Below, piece after piece: positions 18,858-58,859 of a stretch of 64,000 bases of DNA. The first letter of the stretch is position 1; each line of letters opens with the position of its first letter. The position numbers and the translations under genes are program-made. The DNA is from an uncultured bacterium (GTDB lineage: Bacteria > Patescibacteriota > Minisyncoccia > Phycocordibacterales > Phycocordibacteraceae), in assembly GCA_937879955.1 (NCBI GenBank), contig CALFMK010000001.1, forward strand, positions 442,356 to 506,355. Direction: 5' to 3'. The notes beneath the pieces were generated by a model, which saw only the letters and a list, made by a program, of their open reading frames with translations, was not told the DNA's origin and ran no database searches.

Positions 18858-18859
18858 TG

Positions 18860-32338: not shown

Positions 32339-32350
32339 ATCTCATATCGG

Positions 32351-32421: not shown

Positions 32422-32461
32422 TTCGGGAGGATAATAGCATATCCTTTCCCTACTTTTCCAG

Positions 32462-37380: not shown

Positions 37381-37430
37381 CCCTATACACGGCCGCTTCG
37401 GTTCTTATGCCGTGCCCCGGGTATAATCGT

Positions 37431-43722: not shown

Positions 43723-44523
43723 ATGGCATTCGCCAAAAAATCCCTCGGACAGAACTTCCTCATGCATCGGCAGACCGCCGAGCGCATCGTGAAGGCAGCC
43801 GATCTTCCGGATGGCGCGCTCGTGCTCGAGGTGGGTCCCGGCACCGGCATGCTCACGAAGGAGCTGCTCGCTCTCGGCTATCGCGTGCTCGCGGTCGAGG
43901 CCGACTTCGCACTCATTCCTGAGCTCGAGAGCACGTTCGAGAAGGAGATAGGGGAGGGAAGAATCACCATCCTCGCCGCTGACATCCGCTCGTTCGATAC
44001 GGAGACGATACGGGAGCCGTACCATGTGGTAGCGAACATCCCGTACTACATCACCGGCGAGATCATCCGCCAGTTCCTCACCGCCCCGAACCAGCCAGCG
44101 TCCATGACCCTCCTCGTCCAGAAAGAAGTCGCCGAGCGCGTCGCTCGAGCGAACAAAGAGAGCCTGCTTTCACTGTCTGTGAAGGCCTATGGGACGCCGA
44201 AGTTCTGCTTCGTCGTGCCGCGCGGCGCCTTCGTACCAGCCCCGAACGTCGATTCGGCCGTACTCCGGATAAGTGCCATAAGCCGAACATCCTTCTCGGA
44301 CAAGGAAGAGGAGGACGCCTTCTTCGCCATGCTCCATGCCGGATTCGCCCATAAGAGGAAACGCCTGGCGAAAAATCTCGAGGAGTACGCACCAAAGGAG
44401 GAGATAGTGAGCGCGTTTTCCGAGATTGACCTCGACCAGAACGTGCGAGCCGAGGACCTCACGCTTCCGACCTGGTTCGCGCTTCTCGCACGGATCAGAC
44501 CCTCAGGAAAGAAAGGTATTTAA
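43723..44523 (+). CDS. rsmA: 16S rRNA (adenine1518/1519-N6)-dimethyltransferase
   Basis: 266 aa; LGQNFL...VLEVGPGTG...NIPY. Confidence 0.92.
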   Translation: MAFAKKSLGQNFLMHRQTAERIVKAADLPDGALVLEVGPGTGMLTKELLALGYRVLAVEADFALIPELESTFEKEIGEGRITILAADIRSFDTETIREPYHVVANIPYYITGEIIRQFLTAPNQPASMTLLVQKEVAERVARANKESLLSLSVKAYGTPKFCFVVPRGAFVPAPNVDSAVLRISAISRTSFSDKEEEDAFFAMLHAGFAHKRKRLAKNLEEYAPKEEIVSAFSEIDLDQNVRAEDLTLPTWFALLARIRPSGKKGI

Positions 44524-44527
44524 TGCA

Positions 44528-44549
44528 CACGTACCTATATAGGTACGTG
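44528..44549. promoter_or_regulatory. Perfect 22-bp palindrome cacgtacctatataggtacgtg in the leader of the T4SS-like operon
   Basis: Lies between the rsmA stop and the first operon gene; the centre is TATATA. Confidence 0.45.
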
Positions 44550-44591
44550 AAGGGGAGGTGAGCGTGCGTGCTATGATTTCGATACGAAACT

Positions 44592-45590
44592 ATGGCTCAT
44601 TCTACCCGCACACTCCGCATCGTCCTGGCATCGGTCATCGCCGTCCTCATGGTGGGGAGCGCATACGTGTTCTCCGGCCCGAACCCGTTCTTCGGGCTCG
44701 GCCGCATAGCCGAGGCGCAGTCTTCCGAGGAGCTCCTCAAGGAATACGCCGCGAAGGATAGCGATACGGACGGGCTTCCGGACTGGCAGGAGGCGCTCTA
44801 TGGCACCGATCCGCTCAATGCGGAATCGTTCAAGGCAGGAACCAAGGACGGGGACGCGGTAGCGCAGGGCCTCGTCGAGCCCAAGGTCGCCGTACGGCCT
44901 GAGGAAGAGCCGACCGACCTCAGCAGCATCCCGGGCACGCTCCCTGCAGCGAACTCCGTGACCGACCGGTTCGCCCAGACGCTCCTGAAGAAGTACCTGC
45001 TCGGCCGTGGCGAGACGCCGCCGACAAGCGCAGAGATAGTGGCATTCGTCACCGCAAGCATCGACGACCTCGCGAACGAGAGCACGTCTCCGGTCACGTT
45101 CAAGCCCTCGGACGTTCGCGCCGGATCCGGCACCGGCACCGCTGCCATGACTACCTATGCCGCTCAGATGGAGGCCGCGTTCGCCGCGAATACGGTGCCC
45201 GCGGACAGGAACGAGCTCTCGTACTTCGCGGACGCCGTGAAGGGCGATGATTCCGCACTGAAGAAGATCGGCGACATAAGCAAGGCATACAAGAACATTG
45301 CGAGCGCGATCATGAAGATCCAGGTCCCTGCGGAAGCGCGCCAGGCGCATCTCGCGATCGCGAACGCTCTCATGCACATGAGCGAGACCAGCGGAGACAT
45401 GTCGATGATGGAGACCGATCCGGTCCGTGCGCTCATGGGCATTGGGCTCTATGAGCGCTACGCGAACGAGGTGGTAGCGGCCTTCACGAACCTCAGCGGA
45501 ATCTTCGTCGCGCAGCAGGTATCGATCCCGAGCGGAACGGAGGGATACTTTATCGTAAAGACTGCAGCCGACGCAGCTGCTAGCAAATAA
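44592..45590 (+). CDS. Membrane-anchored hypothetical protein with a thrombospondin-type-3-like Ca-binding motif (DSDTDGLPDW)
   Basis: N-terminal TM helix; first gene of the co-directional cluster. Confidence 0.55.
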   Translation: MAHSTRTLRIVLASVIAVLMVGSAYVFSGPNPFFGLGRIAEAQSSEELLKEYAAKDSDTDGLPDWQEALYGTDPLNAESFKAGTKDGDAVAQGLVEPKVAVRPEEEPTDLSSIPGTLPAANSVTDRFAQTLLKKYLLGRGETPPTSAEIVAFVTASIDDLANESTSPVTFKPSDVRAGSGTGTAAMTTYAAQMEAAFAANTVPADRNELSYFADAVKGDDSALKKIGDISKAYKNIASAIMKIQVPAEARQAHLAIANALMHMSETSGDMSMMETDPVRALMGIGLYERYANEVVAAFTNLSGIFVAQQVSIPSGTEGYFIVKTAADAAASK

Positions 45591-45593
45591 GCC

Positions 45594-47105
45594 ATGGAAC
45601 ACGACTACAGGAGATTCTGGTTCCGCGCATCGAAGGCAATCATCGCGCTCGTACTCGCCGTATCCGTCGGCAGCACCGCGCTCCCGCAGCGCGCGCACGC
45701 CATTCTCGGCGTCGGAGACGTCGTTATCGACCCGACGAACCTCGTTCAGAACACGGTCAATGCCGTGTCTTCCGCGGCAACCCACGTTAAGGAATACGTC
45801 CTCGATACGCTCGCGTGGCAGGTCGGCAACCTCGCCATCCAGTCGATGACCAAGAGCCTCGTGAACTGGATCAATTCCGGCTTCAAGGGCTCTCCCGCAT
45901 TCGTCACCGACCTCAACAGGAATCTCCAGGGGGTAGGGGACAAGGTCGCATCCGAATTCTTCGAGTCGCTCTCGAGCAATCTCGACGGCATCACGACGAC
46001 GCCGTTCCAGGACAAGGTCATCGATGCCGTGCGTCTCGGCTACTATCTCCGCACGAGCCCGGAATCGTTCTATACGAAGTATCCGTACACGCTCAACCAG
46101 GTGAGCAGCAATGATAAGGAGTTCCTGAAGGGTAAGTTCACCGAGGGCGGCTTCAACGCGTGGTTCCAGGCTACGCTCGTGCCGCAGAACAACCCGTACG
46201 GCGCGCGCGAGCTCGCGGAGAAGGTACTCTCCGAGCAGGTCGGGACCCAGGTGCAGATCCGCACGCGTGAGCTCGACTGGGGCAAGGGGTTCCTCTCATG
46301 GAGAGGGGACTGCGTCGCGACGACGCGCTCCGTGAGCGCCGCGGCTGACGCCATGAACGCTACCGGCGACGAGGAGCCGGTCGACCTCAGCGGCGAGGAC
46401 GAGTGCCTCGGCTATGAGGTGAAGACCCCGGGCTCGGTCATCATGGAAGCGATCCCGAACAGCATGCAGGCGAATATGAACCGGCTCGTGTCGGCTGATG
46501 AGCTCAATGAGATCGTCGGCGCGCTCATGAACCAGCTCATCGGCCAGGTGCTCGGCAGCGGCAGCGGGGGAGGAGGGCTCAGCGGCCTATCGCGCCCTTC
46601 GGCAGGCGGCGGCGCATCCGTTCTCGATCAGGCCACTGATTCCTCTCAGGCAGGAAGCACCCAGGGTATCAGCAGTACTTTCGCCGCGACCCTCAGCAAC
46701 CAGCGCAAGTACGTCGCGGAGTATCAGGCAGGATGGGATACGATCCGCACGGCGGCCCAGGCCGTGCCGCAGCGCTGCTCGACGAGCGGTTCCCCGTCCC
46801 CGCAGGATCTCATAGCGCGCTCGGGAGAAGCGCTCGTGCAGGCCGCGAACGGACTCGCCGCGCTCGACGCGCTCCAGACTCGCCTTACTGCAGCCCTCGA
46901 CGCAGGCGGCAGCCAGACTACGACCCTCCTCGCGATATCGGAGGACTATAACGAGCTCACCAGTTCGGATACGCTCCCGAGCGCCGAGGCTATTGCCGAA
47001 GCGCAGACAGAATCGAAGGACAGCGGGCAAAGCGAGCAGGTATCCTTCTACACCCAGATGACGCGTCTCGCATCGAGCCGCACCTGCGACGTCTCGGACG
47101 AATAA
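45594..47105 (+). CDS. Secreted hypothetical protein (503 aa) with a Gly/Ser-rich segment
   Basis: Signal peptide ...ALPQRAHA; no recognisable motif; 3 nt after the upstream gene. Confidence 0.55.
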   Translation: MEHDYRRFWFRASKAIIALVLAVSVGSTALPQRAHAILGVGDVVIDPTNLVQNTVNAVSSAATHVKEYVLDTLAWQVGNLAIQSMTKSLVNWINSGFKGSPAFVTDLNRNLQGVGDKVASEFFESLSSNLDGITTTPFQDKVIDAVRLGYYLRTSPESFYTKYPYTLNQVSSNDKEFLKGKFTEGGFNAWFQATLVPQNNPYGARELAEKVLSEQVGTQVQIRTRELDWGKGFLSWRGDCVATTRSVSAAADAMNATGDEEPVDLSGEDECLGYEVKTPGSVIMEAIPNSMQANMNRLVSADELNEIVGALMNQLIGQVLGSGSGGGGLSGLSRPSAGGGASVLDQATDSSQAGSTQGISSTFAATLSNQRKYVAEYQAGWDTIRTAAQAVPQRCSTSGSPSPQDLIARSGEALVQAANGLAALDALQTRLTAALDAGGSQTTTLLAISEDYNELTSSDTLPSAEAIAEAQTESKDSGQSEQVSFYTQMTRLASSRTCDVSDE

Positions 47106-47109
47106 CGCC

Positions 47110-49371
47110 ATGAGGAGCCCTCTCTCATTCGTACGGACAGCGATCCTCTCGGCCGCCCTGGTCCTGACACTGTTCGTAGGCGCATTTCCTGCAAATGCTC
47201 AGGTAACATATACCGACAAGCGCGGAGCGTCCTGCACCAGCTCCAGCCGGACGGTGAGCACGACGAACATCTCTACGACTGTATGTACCTTCCCGGACGG
47301 CACGAAAGAGACATGCGAGGTATCAGGATCTTCTGAGATGGGACCGAGTCCCGCGACCTGCGAGACCGTCTATCCGGACGGAAGGACGGTCTCCGGAACC
47401 TATACCGGCATCGTCGATACGAGCTGCGAGAAGGACGCGGACGGGAAGTGCAAGGAGGGCACGACGCAGGTGAACTCTCCAGCCCTAGGAGCTGCCGTGA
47501 ATGCGGTCGTGGACACCGCGAGCGACATAGTCGTGAAGCCGGTTATCTCGTTCGTTCTCGGCTTCGCTACTTTCATGCTCGGTATCGCGGGCGTGTTCTT
47601 CAACCAGGTCATGATAAAGACGGTGTTCCAGTTCAGCACGTACTTCGGCTCCTCCGAAGGACTCCTGACCGCATGGGGCGTCATGCGCGACGTCGCGAAC
47701 ATCGGCCTCCTGTTCGGTTTCATATTCATGGGAGTCCTGCTAATACTCAATGTCGACGGGGGAGGGCATGGCCACGGGCATGGCGGCGGCATCAGCGCGA
47801 AGCGCGCCATCCCGCGCCTCATTATCTTCGCCGTCCTCCTGAACTTCAGTCTCTTCGCGTCCCAGGCGGTCATCGACGTCTCGAACGCGTTCGCGTCCAC
47901 CTTCACGACCCTCGCCGGCGCAGCCTGCGATGATAATGCATCCGCGACAGACGGGGACAACGCCTGCGCGAATGTCGGTATCGCAGGAAAGGTGATGCAG
48001 CTGGCCGGCATAGCCACCATCTGGAACCCTGACATCGATGCAAGCCCTACGGTACTTCTCGGGCTTACCATATTCGTCCTAATAACGATGGTCGTGCTCC
48101 TTGCGGCAGGTCTCATGCTCGTATTCCGCGTCGTGGTACTCACCATGCTCATGGTCACGTCTCCGATCGGCTTCGCCGGCATGGTCATACCGGGCCTACA
48201 AGGGCTCGCGAGCCGCTGGTGGCACATGCTCATATCGCAGTCCTTCTTCGCCCCGGTGATGCTCCTCCTCGTGTTCATAAGCCTCAAGATGGCAGAGTCC
48301 CTGAATCCGAACGGCGCGCCGCTCGTGGACGCGTTCGCCGGAGCGAACACCACCATGGCCGGGAACCTCGAGGTGCTCGTCGTATTCGCGGTCGTCATCG
48401 GTCTCATGATCAGCTCGCTCATCGTTGCCGCGAAGATGGGCGCGACAGGCGCATCGTTTGCGACCAATACGGCAAGCGCGGTCACGTTCGGCGCCCTTAC
48501 GCGCGTCACGAATGCCAGTGTCGGAGGCACCGCGCGCGGGCTGCGTGCAGCGCAGCAGAGCCAGTGGGCAAGCAGGGTAGGGACCCGCGTGCTCGGCGTA
48601 CGCGGCGCTGCCGTAGCGGGCAAGGTTGGCGAAGTCGCCGTGAACCGGGTGCTCCGTCCGGTCGAGAAGGCGAACATGGATGTGCGGCGCGCGCCTGGCA
48701 TGGGGGCGATCCTCGGCGCAGCCGGCGTTACCGCAGGCGCGAAGCCCGCAGAGCACGCGACATACGGCGACATGGCGCATCAGGTCACCGATATCCGCGG
48801 CGGCGCAGGCGGCAAGAAGCTTGAGGCCGAATACAAGAAGGAGGTCAAGTACGCATCGCTCGAGGGCCTCGCACACGATGACAAGCTCAATGAGGATACC
48901 GCAGAGGCGAAGGAGGCCCGGAAGCTCCTCACGTCGCTCTCGACGAAGGAGCTCGAGGCGCTCCACGGCATCCAGGAGGGTGTCTCTCAGATGGCACAGA
49001 ACCTCACGCCCGAGCAGCTCGAGAATCTCCAGAAGAGCGACAAGCTCGATGACGGACAGAAGCGTACGCTCAAGGAGAAGTACGAGGAGAAGTTCGCCGG
49101 CGACAACGCGAAGCGAACGATTCCAGGTATGAATGCCGAAGGTATCGCGAAGCTCGGCGGGGGTACCGTTTCGAAAACAGAGGTACTTGGGACCATGACT
49201 GGCCGTCAGCTCGCCGCGATCAATCCGGACAAGCTGAACGCTACTCAACTCGCGACTGTACAGGCATATATCAAGAGTCAGCGCACAGCGGGCACTCCTG
49301 CCGGGAAGGAATTCGAAATGCTCCTTATCGGGAACCCAAAGACGAAGGAGCGGTGGGGAGGCTTGGTATAA
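47110..49371 (+). CDS. VirB6/TrbL-like polytopic membrane protein with an N-terminal secreted Cys-containing domain, a GGGHGHGHGGG loop and a long charged cytoplasmic tail
   Basis: 753 aa; signal peptide, about 6-8 TM helices in the middle, K/E-rich C-terminal 250 aa. Confidence 0.5.
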   Translation: MRSPLSFVRTAILSAALVLTLFVGAFPANAQVTYTDKRGASCTSSSRTVSTTNISTTVCTFPDGTKETCEVSGSSEMGPSPATCETVYPDGRTVSGTYTGIVDTSCEKDADGKCKEGTTQVNSPALGAAVNAVVDTASDIVVKPVISFVLGFATFMLGIAGVFFNQVMIKTVFQFSTYFGSSEGLLTAWGVMRDVANIGLLFGFIFMGVLLILNVDGGGHGHGHGGGISAKRAIPRLIIFAVLLNFSLFASQAVIDVSNAFASTFTTLAGAACDDNASATDGDNACANVGIAGKVMQLAGIATIWNPDIDASPTVLLGLTIFVLITMVVLLAAGLMLVFRVVVLTMLMVTSPIGFAGMVIPGLQGLASRWWHMLISQSFFAPVMLLLVFISLKMAESLNPNGAPLVDAFAGANTTMAGNLEVLVVFAVVIGLMISSLIVAAKMGATGASFATNTASAVTFGALTRVTNASVGGTARGLRAAQQSQWASRVGTRVLGVRGAAVAGKVGEVAVNRVLRPVEKANMDVRRAPGMGAILGAAGVTAGAKPAEHATYGDMAHQVTDIRGGAGGKKLEAEYKKEVKYASLEGLAHDDKLNEDTAEAKEARKLLTSLSTKELEALHGIQEGVSQMAQNLTPEQLENLQKSDKLDDGQKRTLKEKYEEKFAGDNAKRTIPGMNAEGIAKLGGGTVSKTEVLGTMTGRQLAAINPDKLNATQLATVQAYIKSQRTAGTPAGKEFEMLLIGNPKTKERWGGLV

Positions 49372-49383
49372 TCGGTAGCATCC

Positions 49384-50214
49384 ATGCACACCGATCAGGA
49401 AGTCAGTAGAGCATATGATCTCGCGCCGAAGGCGATACAGGACGCATTGAGCGACGGGCCTGCCGTCGACTTCATGGTGAACCTGCAGTCGCGCTACGGT
49501 CTTCATGTCGATGTCGCAGGAAGCATCGTGAGCCGTATACGCGATCTGCTTCTCGGGCTCGCGAACCCTACGGAGTTCCTCGGCGAGCTCATACAGCTCG
49601 GTCTCACCGATACGGTCGCGCGCGCTATCGTAGCCGACCTGAACAAGGAGGTATTCGTCCCGCTTCGCGAGGCGATGCGGAATGCGCCCGAAGAGCCGAA
49701 GGCGGCGGTCGAGCCCATTTCCGTACCTCAGCAATCACTGAGCCCTAAGGAGACCGTTCCTGCACCGACGCTCGCGTACGAGCCTAGGCCTGCGCCCGTA
49801 ACGCTTCCAGGCTCTCCGGTAGAAGCGCCGATGCCTGCAGCTCCTGCGTCGTTGCCGACCTATTCAGTGCCGGAGTCCGCACCTGTCGCACCATCCGTGC
49901 CGCATCCTGCATATCCTGCGCCAAGTGCGCCGCAGCCAGGATGGCATTCCGCCGCTGCCGTCCATATCTACGTGCCGAGCCACGGCGTCCCGTTCGAGCA
50001 GATGCATACCCCAGTGCCTATCGAAGCGAAGGAAATAGCTCCTGTTACGGCTCCGCTGTCGTCTGCGCCTACACCCGTTCCCCAGGCCTACGTACCAGCT
50101 CCGGCCATAGCAGCGCCCGAGCCAGTATCTGCTCCCATACCTGCGGCAACTACGCTGGCTCCGGCTCCAATAACCAAGGATTACGCCGCCGATCCGTATC
50201 GCGAACCGATCTAG
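49384..50214 (+). CDS. Pro-rich hypothetical protein
   Basis: 276 aa; globular N-terminal 90 aa then PAP/PVP low-complexity. Confidence 0.45.
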   Translation: MHTDQEVSRAYDLAPKAIQDALSDGPAVDFMVNLQSRYGLHVDVAGSIVSRIRDLLLGLANPTEFLGELIQLGLTDTVARAIVADLNKEVFVPLREAMRNAPEEPKAAVEPISVPQQSLSPKETVPAPTLAYEPRPAPVTLPGSPVEAPMPAAPASLPTYSVPESAPVAPSVPHPAYPAPSAPQPGWHSAAAVHIYVPSHGVPFEQMHTPVPIEAKEIAPVTAPLSSAPTPVPQAYVPAPAIAAPEPVSAPIPAATTLAPAPITKDYAADPYREPI

Positions 50215-50277
50215 GGCGCGCTCGCGCCTGTCCACACGCCAGGTGCCCGCGATTGTCGGAGCTGCTATGCTTTCCGC

Positions 50278-50874
50278 ATGAACGGATACGAATCAGTAGC
50301 GAGGAGGGAGGAGCGCGAACCCTCCGAGAGGGAGGAAGAAGCGGTCGGAACGGGCTCGTTCGAGCCGGTATATCCGCCACCACCCACATCCGAGGAGATA
50401 GCGAGGAAGGAAGCGCTCATAGCCGGCATGCACAGGCCTGAGGCGGCTAACGACAACCAGTTCGCTGCGAATGATAACGAGACGGCGATACATCCGACAC
50501 AGGCGAGCGAGCGCGGACACGCGGAGATTCATGAGGAGCACGGGAAGCAGGAAACCGCCCATTCTCATGAGGCGGCCGGCGGGGGCGCGGGGGGCAGCGG
50601 AGGAGACCACGGAAGCGAGCACGGCGGTGATAATCACGGAGGGAATGAAGGTGGCGGCCACGGCGGGGACCATGGTCATCATGGCGGACATCACCACGAG
50701 AATCCGTGGATCAAATGGGGGGTGAAGCAGCCGATCGCGATCTTCGGCTTCCTCATCTCGCTCGTCGTCCAGGGCGTGAAGCGCTGGGGCGAGATGGCTG
50801 GGAAGGGCGGAGGTGGCGGAGGGGGTGGCCACGGTGGGGGAGGTGGTGGTCACGGAGGAGGTGGCCATCACTAG
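50278..50874 (+). CDS. Gly/His-rich (GGGHG)n protein with one TM helix
   Basis: 198 aa; acidic N-terminus, HGGDNHGGNEGGGHGGDHGHHGGHHHE, TM helix PIAIFGFLISLVVQGV, C-terminal GGGGGGGGHGGGGGGHGGGGHH. Confidence 0.5.
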   Translation: MNGYESVARREEREPSEREEEAVGTGSFEPVYPPPPTSEEIARKEALIAGMHRPEAANDNQFAANDNETAIHPTQASERGHAEIHEEHGKQETAHSHEAAGGGAGGSGGDHGSEHGGDNHGGNEGGGHGGDHGHHGGHHHENPWIKWGVKQPIAIFGFLISLVVQGVKRWGEMAGKGGGGGGGGHGGGGGGHGGGGHH

Positions 50875-50938
50875 CGTCCACACGATTCTCATATGCGAAC
50901 AGGCAGCCGGCATCCGCCGGCTGCTATACTTATAGGCA

Positions 50939-51349
50939 ATGGAGTACCAGGTACCGCAGTTCATCGAGGTTGAGGACAAGATCTTCGGGCCGTTCACGCT
51001 CAAGCAGTTCATCTATATCGCCGGCGGGGTAGGGCTCTGCGCCATCCTCCTCCTCTATCTTCCGCTCATTCTGGGCATCGTACTCGCCGTCCCGGTCGCC
51101 GTGCTCACTGCAGCGCTCGCGTTCTACAAGGTGAACAACAAGCCGTTCGTCGAGATAATCGAGGCCGCTTTCACCTATTACATCGGCGACCGCCTCTATC
51201 TCTGGAAGAAGGAGAAGAACGCTCCGTCCGCTCCTGCGCCCGTGACAAAGCCGGCCGATCCGACGAAGCTCGGTCTCACCCAGAGCAAGCTCAAGGACCT
51301 CGCCTGGTCCCTCGACATCAAGGACCGGGAAGGGAATAACACGCCGTAG
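50939..51349 (+). CDS. PrgI/VirB3-like small membrane protein
   Basis: 136 aa; MEYQVPQFIEVEDKIFGPFTLKQFIYI plus two TM helices; sits immediately 5' of the VirB4-like gene. Confidence 0.65.
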   Translation: MEYQVPQFIEVEDKIFGPFTLKQFIYIAGGVGLCAILLLYLPLILGIVLAVPVAVLTAALAFYKVNNKPFVEIIEAAFTYYIGDRLYLWKKEKNAPSAPAPVTKPADPTKLGLTQSKLKDLAWSLDIKDREGNNTP

Positions 51350-51352
51350 ACC

Positions 51353-51982
51353 ATGGCAGCCACCAAGACAACGCAATCGTTCGTACCCGTGAAGGAAGTC
51401 CGCAACGGCGTCATCGTCCTCAAGGATGACGGCTATCGCGGCGTCCTCATGTGCTCGTCCATAAACTTCGCGCTCAAGGGCGAGGACGAGCAGCGCGCGA
51501 TCATCGGCGGGTTCCAGAGCCTCCTGAACACGCTCGATTTCTCGATACAGATCGTGGTGCATTCCCGCAAGACCGACATCCGGCCGTATCTCGCCCTGCT
51601 CGAGACGCGCATGCAGGATCAGACCACCGAGCTCATGCGGCTCCAGCTGCGCGAGTACATCGCCTTCATCCGGAACTTCATCGACTCGAGCGACATCATG
51701 ACCAAGATGTTCTACGTCGTCGTGCCGTACGCGCCGAGCGCGGGAGTCTCGATAAAGAACGCACCCTTCCTTGGCGGACGCCCGTCGGGCGTCTCGAGCA
51801 CGAGCAGCGACCCGTTCGAGGAGCATCGCGTGCAGCTCGAGCAGCGCATGGCGCTCGTGGTGTCCGGACTCGCGTCAAGCGGCGTGCGCGCCGTGCCGCT
51901 CGGCACCGAGGAGGTCATCGAGCTCCTGTACCGCTCCTTCAACCTCTCGGAGCTCGAGAACCCTATCCACCTCAACGCATAA
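51353..51982 (+). CDS. virB4: VirB4/TrbE-like ATPase, N-terminal domain fragment (ends at an in-frame TAA)
   Basis: 209 aa; FVPVKEVRNGVIVLKDDGYRGVL...SSINFALKGEDEQ pattern typical of the VirB4 N-terminal domain; same reading frame as the next ORF. Confidence 0.65.
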   Translation: MAATKTTQSFVPVKEVRNGVIVLKDDGYRGVLMCSSINFALKGEDEQRAIIGGFQSLLNTLDFSIQIVVHSRKTDIRPYLALLETRMQDQTTELMRLQLREYIAFIRNFIDSSDIMTKMFYVVVPYAPSAGVSIKNAPFLGGRPSGVSSTSSDPFEEHRVQLEQRMALVVSGLASSGVRAVPLGTEEVIELLYRSFNLSELENPIHLNA

Positions 51983-51985
51983 CCT

Positions 51986-53812
51986 ATGGCGCTCCTCGAT
52001 TTCCTCGGAAAGAACAAGAAGGACGACGCGGCTCCGTCGGTGGCGCCCGTGCTGCCGAAGGACATCTACGCGGAAGGGGAGCTGCGTCTCGCGGACGCCA
52101 TCGCGCCGGCGGCGCTCAAGGTCGGCGCGCGCGAGCTCGAGCTGGGCGAGAAGGTCTCGCGCTCGTTCTACACGATCTCGTACCCGCGCTTCCTCGTGGA
52201 CAGCTGGTTCACCCCGATCATCAACCTCGACAAGGTCTTCGACGTCTCCATCTTCGTGCATCCGGTAGAGACCGGGTCCGCGCTCCGCGGCTTCCAGAAG
52301 AAGGTGGCCGAGATCGAGAGCCAGATAGCCGACAGGGAAGAGAAGGGGTTAGTGCGCGACCCGATGCTTGATACCGCGTACCGCGACCTCGAGCAGCTGC
52401 GCGACCAGCTCCAGCAAGCGGAGGAGCACATCTTCGAGGTAGGTCTCTACATAACCCTCTACGGGAACAATAAGGATGAGCTCGACAAGATCGAGGCGGA
52501 CGTGCGCGGCATCCTCGACTCGAAGCTCGTGTATACGAAGCCGGCCCTCTTCCAGCAGGAGCAGGGCTTCCGCTCCACGCTCCCGATCGCGACCGACGAG
52601 CTCCAGGTGACGAGCAAGCTCAATTCCTCGCCGCTCTCCTCCATATTCCCGTTCGTCTCCTTCGACCTCACGAGCGACCGCGGCATCCTCTACGGCATCA
52701 ACCGCCATAACGCGTCGCTTATCCTTTTCGACCGGTTCTCCCTCGAGAACTACAACTCCGTGGTCTTCGCGAAGTCCGGATCCGGAAAGTCCTACGCCGT
52801 GAAACTCGAGGTGCTCCGCTCGCTCATGTTCGGCACGGACGTGATCGTCATCGACCCTGAGCGCGAGTACGAGAACCTCGCTGCCGCCACCGGAGGCCGC
52901 ACCTTCAACATCTCGCTCTCATCCGAGCACCACATCAACCCGTTCGACCTGCCGCCGGTGAAGGAGGACGAGGAGCCGTCCGACATCCTCCGCTCGAGCA
53001 TTATCAACCTCGTCGGCCTCTTCCGCCTCATGCTCGGCGGGCTCACGCCCGAGGAGGACGCCATCATCGACCGCGCCATCACGGAGACCTACGCGCTCAA
53101 GGATATCACCGGAGACAGCGACTTCACCGGCATCGAGCCGCCGCTCCTCTCCGATTTCGAGAACGTGCTCTCGGGCATGGAGGGTTCCGAGTCGCTCGTC
53201 ATCCGCCTTTCCAAATACACGCACGGGACCTGGGCCGGATTCATAAACCAGCCGACCAACGTCGATATCAACAAGCAGTTCATCGTCTTCTCGGTGCGCG
53301 ACATGGAGGACGAGCTCAAGCCGATCGCGATGTACATCATCACGCACTACATCTGGAACGCGGTCCGCCACGAGCTCAGGAAGCGACTCCTCGTCATCGA
53401 CGAGGCATGGTGGATGATGAAGTCGGAGGACACCGCGTCCTTCCTCTACAGCCTCGCCAAGCGCGGCCGCAAGTACTATCTCGGCGTCGCGACCATCACC
53501 CAGGATGTGGAGGACTTCCTTCGCTCGCCGTACGGCCGTCCGATCCTCACGAACTCATCGATGCAGCTCCTCCTCAAGCAGTCCCCGACGACGATCAACG
53601 TCCTCAAGGAGACGTTCAACCTCACCGAGGAGGAGAAGTTCCTCCTGCTCGAGTCCGGGGTGGGGGAGGGTCTCTTCTTCGCGGGCCTCAAGCACGTCGC
53701 CATCAAGGTCGTCGCGTCCTATACCGAGGACCAGATCATCACGTCGGACCCGAGCCAGCTCCTGCAGATAAAGCGCGAGAAGGAGCGCAACGACGCAGGG
53801 CTCGCGGTCTAG
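51986..53812 (+). CDS. virB4: VirB4/TrbE/CagE-like T4SS ATPase, ATPase domain fragment
   Basis: 608 aa; Walker A AKSGSGKS, Walker B LLVIDEAW, conserved C-terminal region. Confidence 0.85.
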   Translation: MALLDFLGKNKKDDAAPSVAPVLPKDIYAEGELRLADAIAPAALKVGARELELGEKVSRSFYTISYPRFLVDSWFTPIINLDKVFDVSIFVHPVETGSALRGFQKKVAEIESQIADREEKGLVRDPMLDTAYRDLEQLRDQLQQAEEHIFEVGLYITLYGNNKDELDKIEADVRGILDSKLVYTKPALFQQEQGFRSTLPIATDELQVTSKLNSSPLSSIFPFVSFDLTSDRGILYGINRHNASLILFDRFSLENYNSVVFAKSGSGKSYAVKLEVLRSLMFGTDVIVIDPEREYENLAAATGGRTFNISLSSEHHINPFDLPPVKEDEEPSDILRSSIINLVGLFRLMLGGLTPEEDAIIDRAITETYALKDITGDSDFTGIEPPLLSDFENVLSGMEGSESLVIRLSKYTHGTWAGFINQPTNVDINKQFIVFSVRDMEDELKPIAMYIITHYIWNAVRHELRKRLLVIDEAWWMMKSEDTASFLYSLAKRGRKYYLGVATITQDVEDFLRSPYGRPILTNSSMQLLLKQSPTTINVLKETFNLTEEEKFLLLESGVGEGLFFAGLKHVAIKVVASYTEDQIITSDPSQLLQIKREKERNDAGLAV

Positions 53813-53815
53813 CGT

Positions 53816-54289
53816 ATGCAGCAGCGGATAGGGAACGTCACGGCAGGAGCGATCATCGCGATCGCCCTGATCATCGACGGCCTCCAGTTCCTGCTCACCC
53901 TCACGGTCGTAGGGTCCATCATCGCCGCGGCCATGACCTTCCTCGCCGGATTCGGCTTCTGGCTCTGGTTCTCCATCCTCGGCGTGAAGTACATGGGCAA
54001 GGAAGGGAACAAGAAGCTCCTCATAAGCCTCACGGCGTTCATCACGGAGCTTATTCCTATCGTGGACGCGCTCCCCGCGACCACGCTCGGCGTCGTACTG
54101 ATCATCATCCAGACGCGCATTGAGGACGCCCGGGCGAACGCTGGGAAGAAGGTGACGCAGCGGACCGCGCTCGCGGCGGTACGCAGCCAGAAGATGCAAG
54201 CCGCGAGGGCCCAGAGAGCGGACGCGGCACGCGCATCTAGGGAAGAGGCGCAGCAGGCGCGCCACGCGCCAGCGAACGAGACTGCGTAG
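53816..54289 (+). CDS. Small polytopic membrane protein, hypothetical
   Basis: 157 aa; 3-4 TM helices then an R/A/Q-rich tail. Confidence 0.5.
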   Translation: MQQRIGNVTAGAIIAIALIIDGLQFLLTLTVVGSIIAAAMTFLAGFGFWLWFSILGVKYMGKEGNKKLLISLTAFITELIPIVDALPATTLGVVLIIIQTRIEDARANAGKKVTQRTALAAVRSQKMQAARAQRADAARASREEAQQARHAPANETA

Positions 54290-54343
54290 CCATACCCACG
54301 CCCAGTGAGGGAAGTAGCGCATCGCACGGTATATACTGTGTCC

Positions 54344-55330
54344 ATGACACGTACCGTGCTTCTCATGCTGCTCCTGCTCGCGGGCTCCGTCGCGCCGGTC
54401 GCGCTCGCGCAGGGCCTCCCAAGCGACGACCCGCTCACGGTATCCATAGCCCCGTCGTATCCGCGCCCGTACCAGACCGTCACCGTGACCCCAGGAAGCA
54501 CGCTTCTCGATCTCTCGTCGAGCAAGGTGAAGGTGTCCGTGAACGGCACGAACGTGTATGAAGGGAGCGGCACCCAGCCGACGAACGTGCGGGCGGGCGG
54601 GCTCGGCGAGAAAACGACCGTCGTCGTGACGGTGACCGATCCTGCGGGCGGGACCTACACGAAGACGCAGGTCATCCGGCCTGCCGAGGTGTCCCTCGTC
54701 ATGGAACCGGCGTCGACCGTGCATCCCTTCTATCAGGGAGGGGCACTCGTCGCGTCCGAGGGCCGCGTGCGTCTCGTAGCGGTCGCGGACCTGAGGAGCG
54801 CGCCGGGTACCCGTCTCCCGGCTTCCTCGCTCGTCTATACCTGGCGACTCGGCGACCGCGTCCTTACGGATGCCTCGGGAATCGGGCGCACGACCCTCAT
54901 AGCGACTGCGCCCGTACGCTATCGCAACGCCGACATCACCGTGACCGTGACGAGTCCGGACAGCGCGCTCGTAGGAGAGGCCGTGACGCGCATCGCGGCC
55001 ACCGACCCGGTCGTACGCATCTACCGCAACGACCCGCTGCTCGGCCCGAACTTCGACGTCGCGCTCTCTAATCGATTCTCCATGCCTGATACCGAGGCCA
55101 CCTTCCGCGCCGTCGGCTACTTCTTCGCCGTGCCGCCCGCGTTCGCCTGGGCGGTGAACGGTACCCCGAACGGGACCGATAAGGACATCACGGTCCGCGC
55201 GACCGGAAGTGGGCAGGGGACCGCGCGTCTCGATCTCACGGCGACCGAGACGGCGAGCCGCCGTAACGCGGAGAGCCAGGTCACAATCGACTTCGGCTCC
55301 GCTACCGGCTTCGGGTTCTTCGGCCTCTAA
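54344..55330 (+). CDS. Secreted beta-rich hypothetical protein
   Basis: Signal peptide MTRTVLLMLLLLAGSVAPVALAQ (the track start at 54305 is the alternative); T/V-rich, probably beta-sandwich repeats. Confidence 0.5.
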   Translation: MTRTVLLMLLLLAGSVAPVALAQGLPSDDPLTVSIAPSYPRPYQTVTVTPGSTLLDLSSSKVKVSVNGTNVYEGSGTQPTNVRAGGLGEKTTVVVTVTDPAGGTYTKTQVIRPAEVSLVMEPASTVHPFYQGGALVASEGRVRLVAVADLRSAPGTRLPASSLVYTWRLGDRVLTDASGIGRTTLIATAPVRYRNADITVTVTSPDSALVGEAVTRIAATDPVVRIYRNDPLLGPNFDVALSNRFSMPDTEATFRAVGYFFAVPPAFAWAVNGTPNGTDKDITVRATGSGQGTARLDLTATETASRRNAESQVTIDFGSATGFGFFGL

Positions 55331-55335
55331 TACCT

Positions 55336-56250
55336 ATGAAATACCTCTCTTTCCTTACGCTCCTCATCCTGTTCCCGGCGCTCGCGCTCGCCGCGACGAC
55401 GACGGACACCTCCTTCGTACCGCTCACCAATATCCCGGCCCTATTCGAGACCGGCAACCAGTTCAATCTCCAGGATTTCCTCAACGGCCTGTACCGGATA
55501 TGCATCGGCGCAGCGGCCGTCATCGCGGTCCTCCAGATCATGCGCGCGGGCATCATGTACATGGGAGGGGACAGCGTCACCGAGAAGAAGGAGGCGCGCA
55601 ACCTCATCGGCCTCGCCATCGGCGGTCTCATCCTCGTGCTGTCGCCGGTTATCGTCTTCTCGATAATCAATCCTGAGATCCTGTCGCTTCAGATCGGCGG
55701 CATCGACAAGCTGCAGACCGCTGACGACATGGGTGGATCGAACGTCTGTACCCCCGCATGCACGGGAGGGAACAGGTGCATGAGCGGACAGTGCGTCCCG
55801 CCCAACGACGGGGACGGCACCTGCAAGGCGGACTGCGTCGCCGGACGGGTCTGCAAGGCAGGCGCCTGCGTCGCGGTATCCGCCGAGAGCTGCACGTCTA
55901 CCATAGCGAACGGCGCGCCGGTGAAGACCATAGCGCAGCAGAACTGCTGCGCTATACAGACCGGGTGCAAGGTAACCATAGGTACCGGAGGCGCGTTCGC
56001 GGATCCAGTATGCTCCTGCTCGCCGACCGGCGCGATAGAATACGGATGGAGGTACACCGCCTTGTATAACGATAATGGCAGCCTCAAGACGGGAACCTTC
56101 AAGAAGGGACCCTTCACGTCTAACGAGAGCTGCGTGGCGTCGCTCACCGCATTCAAGAAGGAATACGACCCGAAGACCGGGGATAATTACACGAGAGAGT
56201 GCGACTGCGGACGCCCGCTCTCCGACCAGCAAGGATGCAGTCCTTTCTAG
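55336..56250 (+). CDS. VirB2/TrbC-like pilin-architecture protein fused to a C-terminal Cys-rich domain
   Basis: Signal peptide plus two hydrophobic helices (ICIGAAAVIAVLQIM, LIGLAIGGLILVLSPVIVFSII), then about 20 Cys in 180 aa. Confidence 0.5.
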   Translation: MKYLSFLTLLILFPALALAATTTDTSFVPLTNIPALFETGNQFNLQDFLNGLYRICIGAAAVIAVLQIMRAGIMYMGGDSVTEKKEARNLIGLAIGGLILVLSPVIVFSIINPEILSLQIGGIDKLQTADDMGGSNVCTPACTGGNRCMSGQCVPPNDGDGTCKADCVAGRVCKAGACVAVSAESCTSTIANGAPVKTIAQQNCCAIQTGCKVTIGTGGAFADPVCSCSPTGAIEYGWRYTALYNDNGSLKTGTFKKGPFTSNESCVASLTAFKKEYDPKTGDNYTRECDCGRPLSDQQGCSPF

Positions 56251-56253
56251 ACC

Positions 56254-57474
56254 ATGAACCGACGCATACTCATCATCATCGCAAGCATCATCGTCGTCCT
56301 CGGACTCGTCGTTGGAGCGTACTACCTGTTCTTCAGCAAAGGCGCGACGCTCACGGTAGGGAACCCGGGAGACCTCTTCGGGGGAAGCGGGGACCGTCCG
56401 ACGACCCTCCTCGGCCCGGACGGCGCGCCGATACAGGGCGCAGGCACCGTCGTGGCGCCGAAGCTCATCCGCATCAGCGACGCGCCGGTGGCGAAGGGCG
56501 CCATCGCGCTCTTCATCCCGGCGACCGAGCCCGCTGCCTCCTCGACCGAGCTCGCCACGCCGGCAGATACCGAGATCCGCTTCATCGAGCGCCAGAGCGG
56601 CAACGTATACGCGTTCCGCCTCCATGACCGCGTCCTTACGCGCATCTCGAACCGCACGATCCCGGGTATACAGGAAGCGACTTGGACCCTGGACGGCACG
56701 CGCGCGTTCGTGCGGTATCTCACCCGAGCCACCGACGGCACCGAGCACATCGATACGTACATGCTCCCGGCGAACGGCGGGGAAGGGTACTTCCTCGAGC
56801 AGGGGCTCGAGCAGGTCGCCGTCCAAGGGACGAGCACCGTGCTTTCCGTGCTGCCGAACACCTCCGGCTCGATCGGCTCGCTCTCGAACCCTGACGGCAC
56901 GAACCTGCGCACGCTCTTCACGTCGCCGCTCTCGCGCCTGAGCGCCGACTTCTCCGGAAGCGACATCCTCGCGACCACCAAGGGCTCGGTGACGCTCGAC
57001 GGGTACGCATTCCTCGTCTCTCGCGCGACAGGCGCCTTCACGCGCATCCTGGGACCGTACAGGGGCCTCTCCGCGGTAGCGAACCCTGAAGGGACCTCCG
57101 TCCTCTACAGCTACGCGGATCGCGGCCGCATCTACCTGCAGGTGCTCGACCTCGCGACCAGGACCGCGACCGCGCTGCCGCTGTCGACGTTCGCGGAGAA
57201 GTGCGCGTGGGCGCCCGGAGGACGCGCCGTCTACTGCGGCGTCCCGACCGCGCTCGCGGGGAACATGCCGGACGACTGGTACCAGGGCGCGGCCACGTTC
57301 TCGGACCGCATCTGGCGCATCGACCTCGATACCCGCCTCGCGACGCTCGTGGTCGATCCGGGGCAGGTAGGGGACGTCGCCATCGACGCGGTCTCGCTCA
57401 CGGTAGACCCTATCTCCGACGCGCTCGTGTTCACCAACAAGAAGGACGGATCGCTCTGGGCGTACGATCTTTAG
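56254..57474 (+). CDS. N-terminally membrane-anchored hypothetical protein, probably beta-propeller-like
   Basis: 406 aa; TM helix IIIASIIVVLGLVVGAYYLFF; last gene of the cluster. Confidence 0.5.
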   Translation: MNRRILIIIASIIVVLGLVVGAYYLFFSKGATLTVGNPGDLFGGSGDRPTTLLGPDGAPIQGAGTVVAPKLIRISDAPVAKGAIALFIPATEPAASSTELATPADTEIRFIERQSGNVYAFRLHDRVLTRISNRTIPGIQEATWTLDGTRAFVRYLTRATDGTEHIDTYMLPANGGEGYFLEQGLEQVAVQGTSTVLSVLPNTSGSIGSLSNPDGTNLRTLFTSPLSRLSADFSGSDILATTKGSVTLDGYAFLVSRATGAFTRILGPYRGLSAVANPEGTSVLYSYADRGRIYLQVLDLATRTATALPLSTFAEKCAWAPGGRAVYCGVPTALAGNMPDDWYQGAATFSDRIWRIDLDTRLATLVVDPGQVGDVAIDAVSLTVDPISDALVFTNKKDGSLWAYDL

Positions 57475-57486
57475 TGAGTTATGGAT

Positions 57487-57520
57487 AAGAAAAGAGCCCG
57501 TATATACGGGCTCTTTTCTT
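57487..57520. terminator. Palindromic bidirectional terminator between the T4SS-like operon and yidC
   Basis: aagaaaagagcccgta-ta-tacgggctcttttctt. Confidence 0.7.
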
Positions 57521-57522
57521 AT

Positions 57523-58266
57523 CTAGGCCGAAGCCTCTGGAAGAGGGGTGACCTTCTTCCTCCGCACGATGTACTCCTGCAGTATCCCGACCAAATTGCT
57601 CGTTATGAAGTAGAGGGAGATGGCGACGGAGGTGTAGTACGCGGCGATGCCGATGAATACCGGGAGAATGAAGCGCATCTGGGTCGCCATGGCGCGACCA
57701 AAGTCGGCCTGCATGTCGGTCCCTTCCTTCTTCGTGCTCTTCTCAGGAACCGGTATCGCGTAGAGGCCGTACAGGAACTGGGTGAGGGCGGCAAGGAAGG
57801 CGAGCGTGATGCTCGCACCCAGGATAGCGAACGTGCCGAGGAAGAGAGGGGAGATGGCGTCAGGCACCGGCACGAACGAGTAGAGGACGGACGTGTCCAC
57901 GGTAAGGAGCGTCTTGCTCTTGAAGACCCAGTAGAGCGAGATGACGACCGGGAGCTGGATGAGGAGGGTGAGGATGCCGGCGAACGGATTCACGCCGTAC
58001 TTCTTGTAGAGCGCGAACATCTGCTTCGCCTGCTCCTCCTTGTCGTCCTTCAGCGTCTCGCGGATCTGCTTCATCTCGGGCTCGATGGCCTTGATGGCGC
58101 GCTGGGTGCGGAGCGCCGCGAAGGAGAGCGGCATGATGATGACCTTCACGATCAGGGTCGCCGCGATAACGGCGAGCCCGATATCCTGTCCGGGCAGGAT
58201 ATCCGTGAGGCCCATGAGAAGGTTATAGATCGGCGTATAGAGAACGGTATGGAAGAAGGACGTCAT
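57523..58266 (-). CDS. yidC: Membrane protein insertase YidC (short, Gram-positive/CPR type)
   Basis: 247 aa; 5 TM helices, conserved YidC/Oxa1 core. Confidence 0.88.
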   Translation of the reverse strand: MTSFFHTVLYTPIYNLLMGLTDILPGQDIGLAVIAATLIVKVIIMPLSFAALRTQRAIKAIEPEMKQIRETLKDDKEEQAKQMFALYKKYGVNPFAGILTLLIQLPVVISLYWVFKSKTLLTVDTSVLYSFVPVPDAISPLFLGTFAILGASITLAFLAALTQFLYGLYAIPVPEKSTKKEGTDMQADFGRAMATQMRFILPVFIGIAAYYTSVAISLYFITSNLVGILQEYIVRRKKVTPLPEASA

Positions 58267-58301: not shown

Positions 58302-58622
58302 TTACCGGGGAAGCGTGCGCTCGAGGAGCCCGGTGAGCTCCTTCGCGAGGGCAGGGTAGTCGAGCGAGGCCGCGCCGGGGCGAGCATAGACGATGAGGAC
58401 CCGGGTAGGGGAGCACCAGGGGGCGATGACCGAGAGGGCCCGGCGCTTCAAGAGATGACGCCCGACCGAGAGCTTCGAGACCTTCTTCGAGATGACCACG
58501 GCGCAGCCCCCTTTTTCAGGGGTTTCCCGTACGGACAAGGAGAAATGGGGGCTCGCAACCCGTTTTTCGGGCCCAGAAGGCGCAAAATGCGCCCGAGTGA
58601 GGCGCATTTTCCGGTTCAACAT
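58302..58622 (-). CDS. rnpA: RNase P protein component
   Basis: [13 protein letters not shown]...ISKKVSKLSVGRHLLKRRA; its ATG overlaps the rpmH stop (TAATG); only the last 106 codons of the 320-aa track ORF are real. Confidence 0.85.
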   Translation of the reverse strand: MLNRKMRLTRAHFAPSGPEKRVASPHFSLSVRETPEKGGCAVVISKKVSKLSVGRHLLKRRALSVIAPWCSPTRVLIVYARPGAASLDYPALAKELTGLLERTLPR

Positions 58623-58759
58623 TAGACGGTGAGCTTCGCGCGTCCCTTGCGGCGGCGGCGCAGGAGGACTGCACGGCCGGTCGGGGTAGCGGTGCGGGCA
58701 CGGAATCCGTGCGTACGCGCGCGCTTGCGCTTCTTCGGCTGGTAGGTGCGCTTTGGCAT
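58622..58759 (-). CDS. rpmH: 50S ribosomal protein L34
   Basis: Own translation: [45 protein letters not shown] (45 aa); not in the ORF track. Confidence 0.9.
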
Positions 58760-58859
58760 ATGCACAGGATACTAACAGGTTGACGGGAAGGTAGCAAGGA
58801 AACGCCTCACGAGGGGACCGGTCGCGCATTTTCGAAACGCCCGTATACTTACCCTCACG

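Follow-up and report, generated by a model that had tools for sequence, protein, structure and literature searches.

A twelve-gene block beside dnaA in a Phycocordibacteraceae genome is very probably a native type IV secretion system of the known Patescibacteria clade

Introduction

Patescibacteria make up a large share of bacterial diversity, live attached to hosts on which they depend, and are nucleotide auxotrophs. One of the few conserved envelope machines of these bacteria is a type IV secretion system (T4SS); it was essential in the single species tested so far, and how it works is an important question. We analysed 64,000 nucleotides of DNA from an uncultured bacterium of the Phycocordibacteraceae (assembly GCA_937879955.1, contig CALFMK010000001.1, positions 442,356 to 506,355), called the window in the following. 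It contains a block of twelve genes on the plus strand, g1 to g12, at window positions 44592 to 57474. The block is very probably a native chromosomal T4SS of the published Patescibacteria clade, derived from the conjugation machinery of type MPF_FATA of monoderm bacteria, with the link to conjugation lost.

The closest described systems are those of other Patescibacteria. A survey of 3,035 patescibacterial genomes detected VirB4 in 2,417, and these proteins form one monophyletic group within MPF_FATA (Quinonero-Coronel et al. 2025, PMC12102498). In that survey TrsD was the most frequent associated component, and PrgI/VirB3, VirB6 and VirB2-like pilins were encoded near virB4 (PMC12102498). 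Relaxases were present in just 103 genomes. Homologues of the VirD4-like type IV coupling protein (T4CP) occurred in most patescibacterial genomes, mostly far from virB4 (PMC12102498). The virB4 gene of Paceibacteria and Microgenomatia is a near neighbour of dnaA, dnaN, rnpA, ksgA and rpmH, which the authors read as an origin-proximal dosage effect (PMC12102498). The genes SEML1_0006-0019 of Southlakia epibionticum, which include essential pilins, were required for epibiotic growth according to transposon sequencing (Wang et al. 2023, PMC10633639); this cluster has no recognisable coupling protein or relaxase (PMC10633639). A 2025 review considers the pilus as a conduit for signals or for uptake from the host, a view that is speculative (PMC12857230).

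Results

For comparison one genome per species was scanned, and the best 80 of 556 loci, ranked by VirB4 similarity, were kept. They belong to Kaiser-, Nomura-, Taylor-, Adler- and Campbellbacteria and to other Paceibacteria. The proteins of the window were compared by tblastn with the loci L001 to L082.

The ATPase of the block is encoded by g8 (51986 to 53812, 608 amino acids (aa)), which is a VirB4 of the MPF_FATA/CD1110 type. An initial annotation of the window had called it a VirB4/TrbE-like ATPase, and hidden Markov models (HMMs) of both Pfam and NCBIfam matched it above their thresholds. The Pfam scores were 86.2 bits for P-loop_TraG (cutoff 25.8), 42.3 bits for AAA_10 (27.5) and 33.6 bits for DUF87 (23.2). 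The NCBIfam model conju_CD1110 scored 371 bits (cutoff 325), the match spanning positions 183 to 733 of its 752. The Walker A motif GSGKS is located at aa 265 (52778 to 52792) and the Walker B motif DEAW at aa 472 (53399 to 53410). With TIGR00929 VirB4_CagE the score was 123 bits at a cutoff of 643. At least 8000 homologues were found at E≤1e-10; the best 120 listed were 85 to 100% identical to g8, and those with a taxon name belonged to Patescibacteria, Paceibacterota or Parcubacteria. Judged by its best matches and by the family models, g8 groups with the patescibacterial VirB4 proteins in MPF_FATA.

The gene immediately before virB4, g7 (51353 to 51982, 209 aa), had been left unassigned by the initial annotation. 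Family HMMs identified its product as a stand-alone VirB4 N-terminal domain of the TrsD/TraC-like kind. NCBIfam models that matched were VirB4_plasma at positions 102-233 (E 2.9e-8), conju_CD1110 at positions 2-104 (E 1.5e-5) and TrsD (E 0.006), and the g7 orthologue of L002 carries the TraC-like family PF26593. A direct BLASTP comparison of g7 with g8 showed no similarity, i.e. the TrsD/VirB4-N kinship is visible only with family HMMs. The part of the VirB4 models matched by g7 is N-terminal, and the match of g8 begins only at CD1110 position 183; it follows that VirB4 is split, with g7 supplying the N-terminal domain and g8 the motor. Two genes upstream of virB4, g6 (50939 to 51349, 136 aa) encodes a VirB3-like membrane protein of the PrgI family; here the earlier assignment as PrgI/VirB3-like agreed with a score of 41.2 bits for Pfam PF12666 (cutoff 27).

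The other two recognisable parts were a VirB6/TrbL-like protein and a VirB2-like pilin, and both owe their identity to orthologues. The polytopic membrane protein g3 (47110 to 49371, 753 aa; 'extended VirB6') has a signal, about six to seven transmembrane-like segments and a long hydrophilic C-terminal tail. The copy in the window had no Pfam match at E≤0.1, and a profile search of the PDB yielded chance or coiled-coil matches only. PF04610 (TrbL/VirB6) was detected in 4 of 25 syntenic orthologues with a best E of 2.1e-7. Thus the proposed VirB6/TrbL-like identity is favoured by the membrane topology and by these orthologues, not by a family match of the window copy. The same applies to g11 (55336 to 56250, 304 aa), a VirB2/TrbC-like T4SS pilin with an additional Cys-rich domain. 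The window copy stayed below threshold with 19.4 bits for TrbC (cutoff 27.9) and 15.9 bits for T4SS_pilin; among 25 orthologues 21 matched PF18895 T4SS_pilin (best E 3e-11) and 12 matched TrbC. The alignment showed a conserved core of aa 1-120, comprising the signal and two hydrophobic helices, throughout which the window copy aligns. The C-terminal domain is rich in cysteine (19 Cys), hypervariable and unalignable among the orthologues.

We then considered the position of the block in the chromosome. On its left uvrD/pcrA (41804 to 43720; Pfam UvrD-helicase, 266 bits) precedes rsmA/ksgA (43723 to 44523, plus strand; RrnaAD, 160 bits), the immediate neighbour. On its right are yidC (57523 to 58266, minus strand; 60KD_IMP), rnpA and rpmH (about 58302 to 58761, minus strand; Ribonuclease_P match), dnaA (58860 to 60209, plus strand; Bac_DnaA) and dnaN (60422 to 61522, plus strand; DNA_pol3_beta). 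The order uvrD-rsmA-g1-g2-g3-g4-g6-g7-g8-(g9)-g10-g11-g12-yidC-dnaA-dnaN-PBP (PBP, penicillin-binding protein) was present in most loci with enough flanking sequence. Parcubacteria bacterium C7867-007 has the same order, and its called genes place rnpA and rpmH between yidC and dnaA; this placement was confirmed in the window and in two relatives (L001 and L002). Because the gene order is conserved in most of the 80 species-level Paceibacteria genomes, the block is judged to be native and vertically inherited, as the initial annotation had argued from the vicinity of yidC-rnpA-rpmH-dnaA.

The conservation of the proteins differed widely. The median identity was 77% for VirB4, 58% for g7 (found in 82 of 82 loci) and 53% for PrgI (78 of 82 loci), compared with 57% for DnaA, 55% for PBP1, 52% for RsmA and 50% for UvrD. 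In the same loci the anchored or secreted proteins g1, g2, g3, g10 and g12 reached 28 to 35%. Because the loci were picked by VirB4 similarity the value for VirB4 is somewhat inflated, yet the contrast within genomes is still large. VirB4 surpasses DnaA in conservation and the surface parts diverge, a pattern that fits a presumed essential motor combined with fast-evolving, probably host-facing parts.

The VirB4 family of g8, CD1110/CTn2, is typical of integrative conjugative elements and of plasmid conjugation. The block might then be an integrated conjugative element or its decayed remnant, with relaxase, coupling protein and oriT just outside of it. A tyrosine recombinase gene (35423 to 36361) and a cluster of tRNA genes (31744 to 32533) located 9 to 13 kb upstream would agree with this idea, and so would a gene for a DksA/TraR-type zinc-finger protein (39336 to 39689). 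A Pfam scan of 54 open reading frames (ORFs) within the 64-kb window, including all of at least 400 aa, found no VirD4/T4CP, relaxase, VirB8, VirB9, VirB10 or VirB11. Hence the adjacent VirD4 or relaxase that would mark an ordinary conjugative element was looked for and not encountered, and the initial description of the system as reduced and probably non-conjugative stands. Moreover, the same site between rsmA and yidC/dnaA is occupied in most of the 80 species-level genomes, the composition of the block including the G+C content at third codon positions (GC3) matches that of its housekeeping flanks, and no integrase adjoins it. The interval between recombinase and block holds the housekeeping genes uvrD and rsmA and an M23 peptidase gene, and the recombinase itself resembles ordinary XerC/D with a Phage_integrase domain and a SAM-like N-terminal domain. 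We consider a conjugative element or remnant highly improbable and adhere to the view of a native T4SS.

The earlier statement that the window lacks VirD4, relaxase and VirB9/10/11 thus held for the 54 ORFs. Its extension to cell-wall hydrolases was too strong, because a protein with LysM and Peptidase_M23 domains is encoded 3 kb upstream of the block (40457 to 41629, minus strand). It is no VirB1 homologue; it might fill the wall-opening role of the missing VirB1. M23 and LysM domains accompany VirB1-like proteins in the phylum, and other hydrolases may take the role of VirB1 (PMC12102498). Among the twelve block proteins no Pfam or NCBIfam match to a VirB8-like protein of the NTF2 fold was obtained.

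A subgroup of Kaiserbacteria deviated from the common gene order. In these genomes (e.g. L018, 1-9362) tpiA-pgk-recJ-rnhA-comEC and a gene for an M50 protease precede prgI in place of g1-g4. The same housekeeping genes are situated in the window at 11102 to 19609, 33 to 40 kb away upstream and inverted. Because genomes of the L018 type swap the genes just upstream of prgI, i.e. have a rearrangement breakpoint there, the block consists of two separable modules. One of them, g6-g12, is always beside yidC/dnaA, the other, g1-g4(5), can be elsewhere. The module break coincides with the region of two gaps of 63-64 nt around g5.

In the L018-type genomes comEC is directly upstream of prgI. This arrangement bears on the possibility of a dedicated nucleic-acid uptake machine, in which a VirB4-powered pilus or channel, by analogy with ComB of H. 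pylori and Ced of archaea, would feed a nucleotide-auxotrophic epibiont with host DNA or RNA. The set of parts is ComB-like, with VirB4-, VirB3-, VirB6- and VirB2-like proteins and neither VirD4 nor relaxase. Furthermore, comF, recG and radA are found beside the T4SS in class ABY1 (PMC12102498). A 2026 preprint reports tubular structures at the interface of parasite and host in a cultivated relative, which may be T4SS pili, and acquisition of host RNA (10.64898/2026.06.21.733656). g8 also showed a partial NCBIfam match to CedB (E 5.6e-10), which is weak and confined to the shared P-loop region. On the other hand, the summary of PMC10633639 given in PMC12857230 states that deletion of comEC in S. 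epibionticum abolished transformation and preserved viability, while the T4SS is essential in this organism. Because comEC loss spares viability, the essentiality of the T4SS would not come about via ComEC-dependent DNA uptake. Nor does the block encode a recognisable DNA-binding or nuclease component. A machine dedicated to nucleic-acid uptake would be the same T4SS with a narrower function and is an unlikely, albeit serious, alternative to one of broader purpose.

The remaining block proteins were examined by profile searches and, for two of them, by AlphaFold2 (AF2) models. The best defined is g10, encoded from a GTG at 54305 (341 aa) or an ATG at 54344 (328 aa) up to 55330 and present in 80 of 82 loci. 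Its AF2 model with a mean pLDDT (predicted local distance difference test) of 81 consists of an N-terminal helix, which is an anchor or a signal, and three tandem immunoglobulin (Ig)-like beta-sandwich domains at about aa 30-122, 142-217 and 223-317. The all-beta model is in line with the beta-rich secreted protein of the initial annotation. A Foldseek search of the PDB gave E values of about 1e-6 to proteins with tandem Ig or fibronectin type III (FnIII) domains, i.e. phage Hoc, SGBP-B, the S-layer protein SbsB and SiiE. From this model g10 is taken to be a surface stalk or adhesin-like protein. By its architecture g10 was the best VirB8 candidate of the block, but the possibility of a TcpC/VirB8-like protein was rejected on account of the all-beta triple-Ig model and the generic Ig/FnIII tandems found by Foldseek.

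g12 (56254 to 57474, 406 aa), the last gene of the block, was identified in 69 loci. Its product has a transmembrane segment at aa 5-23, and the twelve best matches of its family profile in the PDB were all TolB, though weak (best E 0.006). The sequence profile therefore makes a TolB-like beta-propeller probable, in agreement with the membrane-anchored propeller-like protein proposed before. g1 (44592 to 45590, 332 aa) is an anchored protein with a single hydrophobic segment at aa 10-28, serving as membrane anchor or signal, a TSP3_bac repeat of the Ca-binding type at aa 56-77 and a subsequent domain of about 230 aa. The repeat scored 23.2 bits in the window copy (cutoff 25); orthologues have it at the equivalent position and one of them scored 31.1 bits, so that the TSP3-like Ca motif noted initially is backed by an orthologue and is below the cutoff in the window itself. 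The g1 family profile had no significant match in the PDB. Orthologues were found in 34 loci with a median identity of 28%.

g2 (45594 to 47105, 503 aa) is anchored or secreted and mostly helical. An N-terminal motif matched Pfam DUF4141 (E 0.0026) and NCBIfam TrbJ (E 0.0019) weakly, and PF13605 is precomputed on several g2 homologues. The AF2 model had a mean pLDDT of 62, its confident part being a C-terminal helical bundle at about aa 355-495. Foldseek gave nothing under E 0.4 in the PDB, and the PDB profile search gave nothing significant. For g2 as a VirB5/TrbJ homologue there are thus the weak N-terminal HMM matches with E about 0.002, and the structure searches were uninformative.

g4 (49384 to 50214, 276 aa) is a Pro-rich protein with neither a transmembrane segment nor a signal in the window copy. 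In the alignment of 26 orthologues a helical N-terminal part (about 110 aa) is conserved, the Pro-rich linker after it varies, and the C-terminal DPYRE is invariant. The motif DPY[RH]E was found within 6 aa of a stop in 52 of 82 loci, each time at a single place, and in the window in g4 alone. Several g4 orthologues also have an internal RTMAxDMxAxK motif. g4 had no Pfam match, and the PDB profile search gave chance or coiled-coil matches only. The alignment suggests that g4 is a lineage-specific component, with DPYRE as a candidate docking or secretion motif.

g5 (50278 to 50874, 198 aa) is Gly/His-rich and of low complexity, with one hydrophobic, transmembrane-like segment at aa 149-167. With tblastn g5 had no matches in the loci of the relatives. 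L003, L006 and L019 have Gly-rich g5-like ORFs, whereas L002, L004, L005, L007 and L013 lack them. Because g5 was found in only some close relatives, we regard it as an optional component and the conserved core as eleven genes. The small membrane protein g9 (53816 to 54289, 157 aa) has about four hydrophobic segments and a basic C-terminal tail and is fast-evolving, as seen with 17 aligned orthologues. It matched no Pfam or NCBIfam model. A kinship of g9 with the pilins was rejected, the hhalign probability against the pilin family being 2.8%.

The nature of these proteins could suggest an organelle for attachment only, i.e. an adhesive VirB2-type fibre that binds the host together with accessory adhesins and moves no substrate. 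It would account for the hypervariable Cys-rich surface domain of the pilin, for the three Ig-like domains of g10, a fold of many adhesins, for the TSP3 Ca-binding repeat of g1, for the fast evolution of the surface parts and for the coupling protein not being found. However, type IV pili are already available for adhesion. The window encodes the type IV pilus ATPase PilB/T2SSE with an MshEN domain (20842 to 22557, minus strand) and a prepilin-type protein with an N-terminal methylation motif and a lectin-like Laminin_G_3 domain (22676 to 23407, plus strand), which together represent a second surface-filament system within the window. In addition, an active translocon is suggested by the very high conservation of VirB4 and by the fact that a VirB6-like channel protein has been kept. 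An attachment-only pilus, likewise this T4SS in another functional version, appears improbable compared with one that moves a substrate.

The architecture of the block is compact. From g1 to g12 the intergenic gaps are 3, 4, 12, 63, 64, 3, 3, 3, 15, 5 and 3 nt, the gap between g9 and g10 being 54 instead of 15 nt if g10 begins at ATG 54344. The strand, the dense packing and the starts given by the initial annotation were correct; the number of genes is twelve and not eleven. The window has a G+C content of 62%, and base composition and GC3 of the block were indistinguishable from those of the housekeeping flanks. GC3 was 0.77 to 0.91 in ten block genes, with 0.62 and 0.68 in the low-complexity genes g4 and g5. 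In the 20 nt 5' of each start (44571 to 57474) no Shine-Dalgarno sequence was recognisable for any of the twelve genes, and seven genes start at most 5 nt after the preceding stop. Because of these two features the start contexts suggest coupled or leaderless-like initiation. A scan for consensus promoters between 43500 and 59000 yielded one site, located within g6, where 3.5 were expected.

Both ends of the block carry palindromes. The 22-bp perfect palindrome reported at 44528 was read as CACGTACCTATATAGGTACGTG (44528 to 44549), directly after the rsmA stop and before g1. Folding gave a weak hairpin of -13.7 kcal/mol (z -2.1) that lacks a T-run, and the palindrome is possibly a weak terminator of rsmA, or else an operator. 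A shorter core, ACCTAT(T)ATAGGT, was found only in the close relatives L003 and L006 and is missing at most other loci. As conservation goes no further than two close relatives, the palindrome was dropped as a defining boundary of the block. The palindromic terminator reported at 57487 proved to be part of a stronger, bidirectional element, i.e. a 40-bp perfect palindrome (GATAAGAAAAGAGCCCGTAT joined to ATACGGGCTCTTTTCTTATC; 57484 to 57523) composed of an A-run, a GC stem and a T-run. The two strands fold at -34.5 and -34.0 kcal/mol with z of -8.9 and -8.5. A terminator scan found no excess over chance and missed this element, so it was checked by folding. It is a bidirectional intrinsic terminator common to g12 on the plus strand and the convergent yidC on the minus strand. 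About 17 of 51 relatives compared have a palindrome with arms of at least 11 bases at the equivalent place; most of these share the design of A-run, GC stem and T-run and differ in sequence.

The initial annotation had placed the block next to the origin of replication. The synteny with dnaA and dnaN supports this, but no DnaA-box cluster adjoins dnaA, and the rpmH-dnaA and dnaA-dnaN spacers contain no one-mismatch DnaA-box match. GC skew was dropped as evidence for an origin since it tracks the gene strand in the window. A gene-free, AT-rich spacer of 437 bp at 31912 to 32348, located between tRNA-Pro and tRNA-Gly, contains an AT-rich run at about 32140-32200 and four of the 13 one-mismatch DnaA-box matches of the window (TTATTCACA, TTATCCCCA, TTATCCACT and TTTTCCACA). 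Judging from these matches the spacer is possibly oriC, at a distance of about 26 kb from dnaA, or simply a promoter region of tRNA genes.

Outside the block the window is ordinary chromosome. It contains fusA, dinB, a lexA-like gene, recJ, pgk, tpiA, pilB, nusA, clpP, rny, mgsA and four tRNA genes, and further cca, xth, an xerC-like gene, uvrD, rsmA, yidC, rnpA, rpmH, dnaA, dnaN and the gene of a class A PBP. An ORF of 640 aa (37365 to 39287, plus strand) between the genes of an NYN-domain protein and the DksA/TraR zinc-finger protein has a coding-like GC3 of 0.74 and matched no Pfam family at E≤0.001. The region 4630 to 8134 is lower in G+C (52% at 6-8 kb compared with about 62% elsewhere) with a GC3 of 0.57-0.64. 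Its products are an LCAT-like lipase or acyltransferase of secreted type (694 aa) and a protein with a CAP/SCP domain (337 aa), and the region may be horizontally acquired cargo for host interaction.

Discussion

The split VirB4, the PrgI-family protein, the VirB6- and pilin-like proteins and the conserved chromosomal site make us rather confident that the block is a T4SS of the Patescibacteria clade. Several points weigh against this assignment. The placement of VirB4 inside the clade was judged by its best matches and by models of the family, and the VirB6-like and pilin proteins of the window miss the Pfam gathering thresholds so that their identity is transitive via orthologues. Neither a VirB8-like nor a VirB1-like component was identified among the block proteins, g10 being Ig-like and not NTF2-like; g1, g2 or g12 may conceal an NTF2 fold. 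A VirD4-like gene may be present elsewhere in the genome, as its absence holds for the 64-kb window. The essentiality of the system is known solely from one Saccharimonadia strain. Finally, nothing in our data separates import from export.

A working model can be outlined as follows. g6, g3 and g7/g8 would form a translocon in the cytoplasmic membrane, and ATP hydrolysis by VirB4 would drive g11 to assemble into a short pilus, or a tube, that crosses the thin wall. The Ig stalk g10, the propeller g12, the Ca-binding repeat protein g1 and g2 would constitute a wall-spanning, host-contacting scaffold. For g4 the role of an adaptor or of a substrate, recognised via its DPYRE tail, is conceivable. 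The apparatus would serve a contact-dependent exchange with the host cell of the epibiont rather than plasmid transfer or DNA conjugation.

As to what is exchanged, the import of host macromolecules is our tentative first choice; it ranks slightly ahead of the export of effectors, which is nearly as conceivable, and a pure attachment pilus comes last as an improbable third. Import owes this slight edge to ComB and similar precedents that work with no T4CP, to the phylum being auxotrophic for nucleotides and to the host RNA acquisition described in the 2026 preprint. A bolder idea, which we consider quite unlikely, is that the Paceibacteria version operates as a 'reverse' T4SS. The split VirB4, the pilin with its hypervariable Cys-rich tip, the triple-Ig protein, the propeller resembling TolB and the Pro-rich protein of the cytoplasm would then make up a tube that pierces the host and through which its RNA, nucleotides or other macromolecules would enter the epibiont. 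The DPYRE tail would dock to or gate the VirB4/TrsD motor and thereby replace a coupling protein.

How does the block compare with known systems? The Agrobacterium VirB/VirD4 system (MPF_T) shares a pilin of the VirB2/TrbC type, and g2 possibly has a weak VirB5/TrbJ-like N-terminal motif (E about 0.002). In contrast to Agrobacterium the block has neither VirB7-11 nor VirD4, and its pilin bears a large extra C-terminal domain. Closer in composition are the T4CP-less systems, i.e. ComB of H. pylori for DNA uptake and Ptl of Bordetella and VirB of Brucella for protein export. Like the block they are driven by VirB4, have VirB2-, VirB3- and VirB6-like parts and are encoded at a locus that lacks VirD4 and relaxase. 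Yet these systems belong to diderms, have a VirB7-10 core complex and use a VirB4 of the MPF_T clade.

The kinship with the MPF_FATA systems (pCF10 Prg/Pcf, CTn2 CD1110, pGO1 Trs and pIP501 Tra) is seen in the VirB4 of the CD1110 family, the VirB3 of the PrgI family, the TrsD-like stand-alone VirB4 N-domain as in pGO1, and the lack of an outer-membrane core VirB7/9/10. Unlike these systems, the block is accompanied by no relaxase, T4CP, oriT or PrgB-type adhesin and does not contain a VirB8-like (PrgL/TraM) or VirB1-like (PrgK/TraG) gene. It does have a VirB2-like pilin, which the Gram-positive systems lack, and it is fixed at one chromosomal locus whereas those ride on mobile elements.

From the T4SS of the Patescibacteria clade the block does not differ in any essential way. 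It has a VirB4 of MPF_FATA ancestry with TrsD-like and PrgI genes immediately upstream, a putative VirB6-like protein and a VirB2-like pilin in the cluster, no relaxase and no nearby T4CP. It shares with the Paceibacteria T4SS the chromosomal site beside dnaA, dnaN, rnpA, rpmH and ksgA. Where Saccharimonadia and Microgenomatia have arrays of several pilin genes, the block has a single one, whose product carries a variable C-terminal domain. The proteins with the DPYRE tail, the triple-Ig, the TolB-like and the TSP3 domains belong to what PMC12102498 seems to leave unannotated as 'grey genes'. The system as such, including its position next to dnaA, is known from the papers of 2023-2025; the present locus is one of thousands in a catalogued clade, a rediscovery and not a new kind of system. 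What is added is modest and incremental, i.e. the gene-by-gene anatomy of a Paceibacteria cluster, its two modules and the contrast in conservation between motor and surface, and such detail may help to design experiments with cultivated relatives.

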